Notes under the pieces: generated by a model
What the model was told of the DNA's origin: nothing
The model's database searches: none
The model's input: the letters and a program-made list of their open reading frames with translations, nothing else
In this document: positions 11,197 through 11,760 of the stretch, in pieces
Numbering within the stretch: the stretch's first letter is position 1
Layout of the letters: each line of letters opens with the position of its first letter
Source of the DNA: a virus
Taxonomy: Duplodnaviria > Heunggongvirae > Uroviricota > Caudoviricetes
DNA: 11,760 nucleotides
Virus record (IMG/VR): IMGVR_UViG_2737471850_000002
Direction: 5' to 3' (one strand)
Translations under genes and position numbers: made by a program

Positions 11197-11760
11197 ATGT
11201 TCGGTCTGAGGAAAGTAAATCGAAACACTCATACGTTTGAAACCACTTTTCAAAATTGGAAAGAAAATGGCGAAGATGTTGCATTATTAATGCCCGAATT
11301 TAGTGCTAAATGGCTACCGATAGCAGAAGAGAGTGGCAGCTGGTCTGGATGGGTATTGCTTGGAGAAATATTTCCCTTAATTTCATCTGAGCTCGCTGGG
11401 ATGGCTTTAATGCCAGAAACGGAAAGGTTAATAGGGGAATGCCTCAGTTTATCCAGTTCCCCGTTAAATCTAAAGCATCCTGAACTAAAATATAATCGTT
11501 TGCGCGTAGGTAAAGTATTTGATGGAGTATTGAGCCCTGCTCAACCACTAATAAGAATATGGACAGGGGAATTGAATCTTTGGTTAGATAAAGTCACAGT
11601 CTGCCAATACGGAAACGCTCCAGCGTTAGACAAAAAATCGTTATATTGCTCCATTCATTTTGTAATTGGATTTAGTAAAACATGTTACAGAAGTCTTGTT
11701 GATATTGAAGTTGGTGATGTTTTATTAATCTCAAATAATTTGGCTTATGCGGTTATTTAT
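11197..11760 (+). CDS. sctQ: Type III secretion system sorting-platform protein, SctQ (SpaO/YscQ/EpaO family), 5' partial; runs off the window end
   Basis: Hand translation from ATG 11197 (AAGGA SD 9 nt upstream) stays open to the window end (188 codons); the segment HFVIGFSKTCYRSLVDIEVGDVLLI and the WSGW...ELAG pattern match the SpaO/YscQ family as I recall it. Not in the ORF track because no stop lies in the window. Confidence 0.6.
   Translation, partial: MFGLRKVNRNTHTFETTFQNWKENGEDVALLMPEFSAKWLPIAEESGSWSGWVLLGEIFPLISSELAGMALMPETERLIGECLSLSSSPLNLKHPELKYNRLRVGKVFDGVLSPAQPLIRIWTGELNLWLDKVTVCQYGNAPALDKKSLYCSIHFVIGFSKTCYRSLVDIEVGDVLLISNNLAYAVIY

Follow-up and report, generated by a model that had tools for sequence, protein, structure and literature searches.

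A type III secretion sctQ homologue beside a deletion scar at the glyU-proximal end of the Escherichia coli ETT2 cluster

Introduction

The IMG/VR virus record IMGVR_UViG_2737471850_000002 holds a stretch of 11,760 nucleotides (the whole of which we call the window) that ends inside a gene resembling sctQ of type III secretion systems (T3SS), and the question it raises is why this gene stands there without the T3SS genes that usually precede it. A sequence-only reading of the window had noted a GH15 pseudogene and an unrelated two-gene cassette ahead of sctQ, as well as a PerC-family activator gene further upstream, and had proposed either a degenerate or rearranged T3SS locus or cargo inserted at the boundary of the cluster. 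We are highly confident that the window covers the glyU-proximal end of ETT2, a cluster that is the second of its type in E. coli, in the common form that carries the 8.74-kb deletion, with an independent satellite-like island integrated into the tRNA gene glyU.

Identity of the Gene at the Window Edge

11197–11760, + strand: 5′ part of epaO (sctQ/spaO homologue), 188 codons, identified by profile match and DNA identity, leaving the window at its edge

The frame opens with an ATG at 11197 and continues without a stop through the window end. Using the NCBIfam profile NF006018 ("YscQ/HrcQ family type III secretion apparatus protein"; cut-off 223 bits), we obtained a match of 273.4 bits (E = 1.9e-81), in which residues 2–188 aligned to profile positions 3–187 of 303. 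The TIGR02551 profile (SpaO_YscQ) scored 79 bits (E = 5.6e-22) against a cut-off of 100.8, a shortfall expected given that the query is a 188-residue fragment. A Pfam scan of the 188 residues returned no match, since the sole Pfam domain match in a full-length relative from strain Z1323CEC0013 (FliMN_C, PF01052, residues 239–308) falls past the window edge. The first 188 residues of this intact 315-residue open reading frame (ORF) are identical to the part of epaO in the window, and its C-terminal SPOA domain matched structures of SpaO from Salmonella SPI-1 (pathogenicity island 1; 4yx1, E = 1.1e-14), a protein for which an internal translation start giving a short SctQ-C product has been described (PMC7058095), at a site that here would fall outside the window. 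The homology search that had been suggested for the visible codons hence bears out the sctQ call, with SctQ family profiles fitting an open frame.

At the DNA level, the epaO stretch is 96–100% identical to epaO of the ETT2 island beside glyU, including 96.1% identity to that of the O157:H7 strain Sakai. ETT2 is known as the second T3SS island of E. coli and lies beside this tRNA gene (PMC3977695, PMC11068852); on sequence grounds, we assign the gene at the window edge as the start of its epaO (sctQ). Given that the C-terminal SPOA fold is common to SctQ and FliN/FliM, and that FliN is among the structure matches, the ORF could in principle derive from another T3SS or a flagellar cluster (escQ/sepQ of the locus of enterocyte effacement (LEE), or a Flag-2 fliN-type gene). 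We give such an origin next to no credence, as it runs counter to the DNA identity to ETT2 epaO, the ETT2 synteny beside glyU, and a best profile that is the YscQ/HrcQ equivalog, matched from position 3.

The surroundings of the gene were read in relatives. Window positions 9000–11760 are matched in 5,114 of the 5,426 complete E. coli genomes searched, many of them 100% identical over 9283–11760, and the window end is 98–100% identical to ETT2 regions in many E. coli genomes. In Z1323CEC0013, which is 100% identical over window 9307–11760, the order from the glyU side is tRNA-Gly, integrase, mobile island, ygeQ, a "hypothetical protein", and a 120-nt SpaN/EivJ fragment ("missing N-terminus"), followed by YscQ, sctR, sctS, sctT, sctU, an etrA-type regulator, eprH-K, orgA, ygeK, ygeH, ygeG, and yqeK. 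The export-apparatus genes that the sequence-only reading had proposed to look for downstream are thus present after epaO in relatives identical over this window end, with sctR-S-T-U directly 3′ of epaO in comparison loci L001 and L005 (99–100% identical over the window end).

An 8,736-bp Deletion Upstream of epaO

11070–11079, no strand assigned: deletion scar, located by blastn against Sakai and F9792 and by the flank sequences, with the junction at 11078/11079
11078–11197, + strand: eivJ 3′ remnant (SpaN/InvJ-family needle-length determinant), 39 codons and a stop, no start codon

By blastn, the window lacks 8,736 bp against Sakai and exactly as much against strain F9792. Window 9313–11078 corresponds to Sakai (L004) 47350–45590 at 98.6% identity and window 11070–11760 to 36862–36172 at 96.1% identity; the left block stops 13 nt beyond the GH15 stop codon, and the right block opens within eivJ2. 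F9792, which keeps the full eiv set, is 99.3% identical to window 3705–11078 and breaks at the same point. By the Sakai annotation, the lost segment (ECs3735 to eivJ2) comprises a ghoT-like gene, eivF, eivG, eivE, eivA, eivC, eivI, eivJ1, and most of eivJ2. Comparison with intact ETT2 clusters, which had been put forward as the way to a breakpoint, thereby placed it at a single junction, and the "degenerate locus" half of the earlier proposal holds: the upstream genes are gone in one deletion.

What is left of eivJ lies directly ahead of epaO, its TAA overlapping the epaO ATG as TAATG. Its translation differs by two substitutions from the 39 residues that end Sakai EivJ2, and the corresponding stretch in L001 is labelled by PGAP as "SpaN/EivJ family, missing N-terminus". 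The start of epaO is 132 bp downstream of the GH15 pseudogene, and the earlier statement that upstream T3SS genes are missing is right insofar as the window has no complete one upstream, though it overlooked this 39-codon remnant. At the scar, the microhomology is imperfect, with CATAATGAG on the left and ACAATGATG on the right matching at 7/9 positions and AATGA alone exact (5 nt); such minimal microhomology points to illegitimate recombination.

We propose that a single deletion of this kind ran from 13 nt beyond the GH15 stop to codon 151 of eivJ2. Besides the ghoT-like gene, it took the genes for the regulator (eivF/invF), secretin (eivG/sctC), gatekeeper (eivE/sctW), export gate (eivA/sctV), ATPase (eivC/sctN), and stalk (eivI/sctO), together with most of eivJ (sctP); judging from established injectisome biology, it would also have parted epaO from its native upstream operon context. 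SctN, SctV, and SctC, which were sought as marks of a functional SPI-1-type injectisome, are absent, with eivC, eivA, and eivG lying inside the missing 8,736 bp. Because these three are gone, established T3SS biology predicts that the remaining cluster would be unable to build a secreting injectisome. The truncated eivJ frame in the window argues against the reverse polarity, in which Sakai, F9792, and 042 would have gained the 8.7-kb segment by insertion.

The GH15 Gene and the Mobile Island in glyU

9455–11065, + strand: GH15-family gene (ygeQ/ygeP, pkgA), nonsense-inactivated, collinear with the intact gene of strain ECamp52 and with a weak Pfam GH15 match
9282–9312, + strand: attR of the island, comprising the last 18 nt of tRNA-Gly glyU (TTCCCTTCGCCCGCTCCA) and 13 nt downstream, a 31-nt match to the Sakai glyU 3′ end and flank

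The GH15 gene is, as had been read, a pseudogene ahead of sctQ. Its 1,611-nt collinear alignment with the intact 536-residue gene of ECamp52 holds 31 substitutions, one of which makes the stop (G to T at 10247, GGA to TGA; stop codon 10247–10249). The first ORF (9455–10249) and K-12 ygeQ are both 795 nt in length, which suggests that the window carries the K-12 ygeQ nonsense allele, and the ygeQ and "hypothetical protein" of Z1323CEC0013 are likewise two halves of one GH15 gene. A GH15 gene is normal at the glyU-proximal end of ETT2 in Sakai (ECs3736/3737), F9792, and K-12 (ygeQ/ygeP), and by this comparison we take that of the window to be native to the cluster end, not foreign.

ARAGORN returned no whole tRNA in the window, only the partial glyU copy being present. 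By sequence, everything left of 9282 belongs to a satellite-like mobile island in glyU (AlpA, AntA, PerC, and RexAB-like cargo), whose integration was an event separate from the deletion; this independent integration accounts for the unrelated genes further upstream of epaO.

A mobile island at glyU with a recognizable attR is what could be expected had foreign DNA (GH15, the two-gene cassette, and the PerC island) parted sctQ from its T3SS genes, with the eiv genes then lying further upstream. This cargo insertion is nevertheless highly improbable. Relative to GH15, the island sits toward glyU and not between GH15 and epaO, and the undeleted strains share the order island, GH15, ghoT-like gene, eivF to eivJ, epaO; in Sakai, the order from glyU reads ECs3737/ygeP (GH15), ECs3735 (ghoT-like), eivF, eivG, eivE, eivA, eivC, eivI, eivJ1/J2, epaO. 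Directly past the island, deleted relatives have tRNA-Gly, actS, and xdhA, and no eiv genes, and the eivJ frame is cut at 11078 without insertion-element ends. Since F9792 carries the same cargo beside a full eiv set, the island does not part sctQ from the eiv genes. The earlier suggestion of cargo at the cluster boundary therefore survives in that an island sits between glyU and GH15, ending at attR, and fails as an explanation for the isolation of sctQ.

We also observed that ~73–78 nt that separate the glyU flank from the promoter region of GH15 in Sakai (L004 47428–47351) and Z1323CEC0013 are absent or replaced in the window at 9312–9313.

Prevalence and Relation to Published ETT2 Isoforms

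Using a 400-nt probe centred on the junction, we found it contiguous in 1,923 of the 5,426 complete E. coli genomes (99–100% identity among the matches listed), with ~1,280 further places in which the probe halves lie apart, corresponding to undeleted genomes. About one in three complete E. coli genomes carries the deletion form. An 8.74-kb right-end ETT2 deletion isoform has been reported for avian pathogenic E. coli (reviewed in PMC11068852), and eivJICAEGF are absent from almost all genomes of a bovine E. coli panel (PMC5422975). We equate the window deletion with this already known isoform by size (8,736 bp vs. 8.74 kb) and gene content. The location agrees as well, with a glyU 3′-end copy, GH15, the eivJ tail, and epaO following one another at 96–100% identity to ETT2 references. 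Nothing of substance differs at the junction; what the window adds is an island integrated into glyU that has lost its replication module by internal deletion, and the combination of that island with this junction was found in none of the complete genomes searched.

Strains ECamp52 and 08-00022 (L002 21027–21688; L003 16818–17479) have a smaller deletion, probably that of the published 4.99-kb isoform, in which a 5′ fragment of eivF is fused to the 3′ end of eivA and eivG and eivE are lost.

Several points weigh against our interpretation. The bovine study speaks of "two small direct repeats, thus often deleted" (PMC5422975, with reference to Ren et al. 2005 on Flag-2), and the weak microhomology seen here (5 exact nt, 7/9) fits a single ancestral event better than this wording. 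The window ends within epaO, and the downstream genes of this particular genome lie outside it. Degenerate ETT2 clusters have published phenotypes (PMC6030553, PMC3977695), and the non-functionality of the remnant is something we infer.

State and Possible Role of the Surviving epaO

Compared to Sakai epaO, the window carries a single additional A, at 11231. Read from the ATG at 11197, the frame gives a SpaO-like N-terminus (MFGLRKVNRN...) that fits the family profile from position 3, whereas Sakai has a 1-nt deletion at the 11231 equivalent and its annotated protein (328 residues) begins in another frame at an ATG 40 nt upstream, which that deletion makes usable; Sakai epaO has previously been noted to bear a disruptive mutation (PMC7058095). 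From the equivalent of the 11197 ATG, four strains with the full or a partial deletion (L001, L002, L003, and L005) have epaO as an intact ORF of 315 codons. The "frameshifted" label given to epaO by PGAP in several strains (988 nt annotated vs. 987 nt in Sakai) seems to be artefactual, arising from a reference protein of the Sakai type, and the epaO of the window itself looks intact over its visible codons.

This intactness raises the prospect that the remnant has kept a function, the deletion having joined epaOPQRS to the transcription unit of GH15 and the intact epaO/P/Q/R being maintained for a non-secretion role (for example at the cell surface or on flagella). Pairwise ratios of nonsynonymous to synonymous change (dN/dS) of ~0.3 for epaO and ~0.1 for epaP are not neutral, and degenerate ETT2 clusters have been linked to phenotypes (PMC6030553, PMC11068852). 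Undeleted strains further have a hairpin after the GH15 stop (−19.5 kcal/mol, z = −2.9) that is gone at the junction (z = −0.13), making read-through from the GH15 unit conceivable. We nonetheless consider retained function unlikely. With no pair exceeding 17 nonsynonymous and 15.5 synonymous differences, there are too few substitutions for dN/dS to say much on selection after the deletion, and most of the divergence is older than or independent of it. A promoter and terminator consensus scan of 9000–11760 found no enrichment over shuffled sequence, and the deleted relatives show further decay, with sctU and orgA frameshifted and ygeK carrying an internal stop.

A more specific form of the idea, which we judge quite unlikely, holds that removal of the eivF promoter region together with the GH15 hairpin would leave epaO-epaP-epaQ-epaR read through from the GH15 (ygeQ) unit, and that the arrangement would be kept in a third of E. 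coli for a secretion-independent effect of partial export-apparatus or sorting-platform proteins, for example on the envelope or flagellar export.

As a further attrition variant, we noted that in assembly GCA_974498655.1 (L017 13646–14969) epaO, after the same junction, is broken into ORFs of 234 and 83 residues and cut by IS1, and that the cluster picks up again at a Trans_reg_C regulator gene.

Comparison with Other Clusters

The ETT2 of O157:H7 Sakai (ECs3703–ECs3737) shares its gene order with the window and is 96–99% identical in DNA on both sides of the junction. It differs in keeping eivF to eivJ and in the 1-nt deletion of epaO, where the window has the unshifted form; its GH15 gene (ECs3736/3737) is also disrupted, at a different place. 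The ETT2 remnant of K-12 (ygeQ, ygeP, IS2H, ygeO, ygeN) likewise lies beside glyU with a ygeQ of 795 nt, but there an IS2-bounded deletion extends from the GH15 3′ half (ygeP) to orgA, which is why both epaO and the window junction are absent from that strain. The Salmonella SPI-1 inv-spa cluster (invJ-spaO-spaP-spaQ-spaR-spaS) has homologous genes in the same order, including an upstream stop that overlaps the sctQ start; in contrast to the window cluster, which lacks the invF-to-invJ equivalent, it is complete and functional.

Gene Content of the Island

2528–3645, + strand: island regulatory module, with an AlpA-type helix-turn-helix gene at 2528–2767 (PF05930, E = 1.9e-19) and an AntA antirepressor-family gene at 2845–3645 (PF08346, E = 2.4e-23)
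3863–4150, + strand: PerC-family gene, island core gene (PF06069, E = 6.8e-32)
7551–8444, + strand: DUF4747 (RexA-type) protein, 297 residues (PF15931, E = 9.5e-98)
8444–9043, + strand: multi-pass membrane protein by hydropathy, 199 residues, overlapping the DUF4747 gene

The replication module that usually follows AntA (an Icd-like gene, DUF4222, a primase/helicase, and the 5′ part of ProQ) is deleted in the window, with the join near 3705, where blastn places AntA-side sequence directly against the ProQ 3′ part of L001–L003. A DNA probe spanning this join (3560–3860) had no contiguous match in the 5,426 complete genomes. The left 2.5 kb of the window resembles a different island variant (strain B379), making the window a mosaic. 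A scan of the whole window at Rfam gathering thresholds gave no match.

The PerC gene lies, as had been noted, upstream in the window, about 7 kb from epaO. The T3SS link that had been drawn from it is not supported, given that ProQ-PerC is a core pair found in every island copy examined (ten places, L008–L017), in several chromosomal contexts and mostly away from ETT2. A role for this gene as an ETT2 regulator was considered and rejected, PerC being a core gene of an island family at other chromosomal sites.

The cassette ahead of GH15 does consist of two genes, the DUF4747 gene and the membrane-protein gene that overlaps it. DUF4747 has been reported in lambda RexA and Sbash gp30 (PMC6426596), and the arrangement is comparable to that of RexA/RexB-type pairs (PMC6426596, PMC13373217); from its sequence, the cassette looks like a RexAB-type abortive-infection pair. 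PADLOC found no match among nine island ORFs, version 2 having no model for the DUF4747 pair. In the assembly collection, 1,891 blocks are indexed for the exact DUF4747 protein, and an exact-protein look-up gave ten places, none with the full arrangement of the window. In every place read, DUF4747 closes the cargo ahead of the right end of an AlpA/AntA/primase/ProQ/PerC island, and at several chromosomal sites the pair accompanies the island; the differing contexts of these ten places indicate that the island is mobile.

Just after PerC, both in the window and in F9792 and others, the cargo includes an ORF of 380 residues (4285–5427) with a lipoprotein-type signal (MNKTLIATLVGIVMLTGC...), for which no Pfam, NCBIfam, or PADLOC family scored above noise.

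Conclusions

The observation of an sctQ homologue without its usual upstream genes is correct, and the locus is an already described and very common degenerate form of ETT2. Its importance extends little beyond correct annotation: the ORF is to be annotated as epaO with its start at 11197, not as a frameshifted gene from 11157; the 120-nt stretch upstream as an eivJ remnant marking the deletion scar; and the PerC gene and RexAB-like pair as parts of an unrelated mobile island, not as T3SS regulators or cargo. For the biology of E. coli, the window offers a textbook case of the mutational attrition of ETT2.
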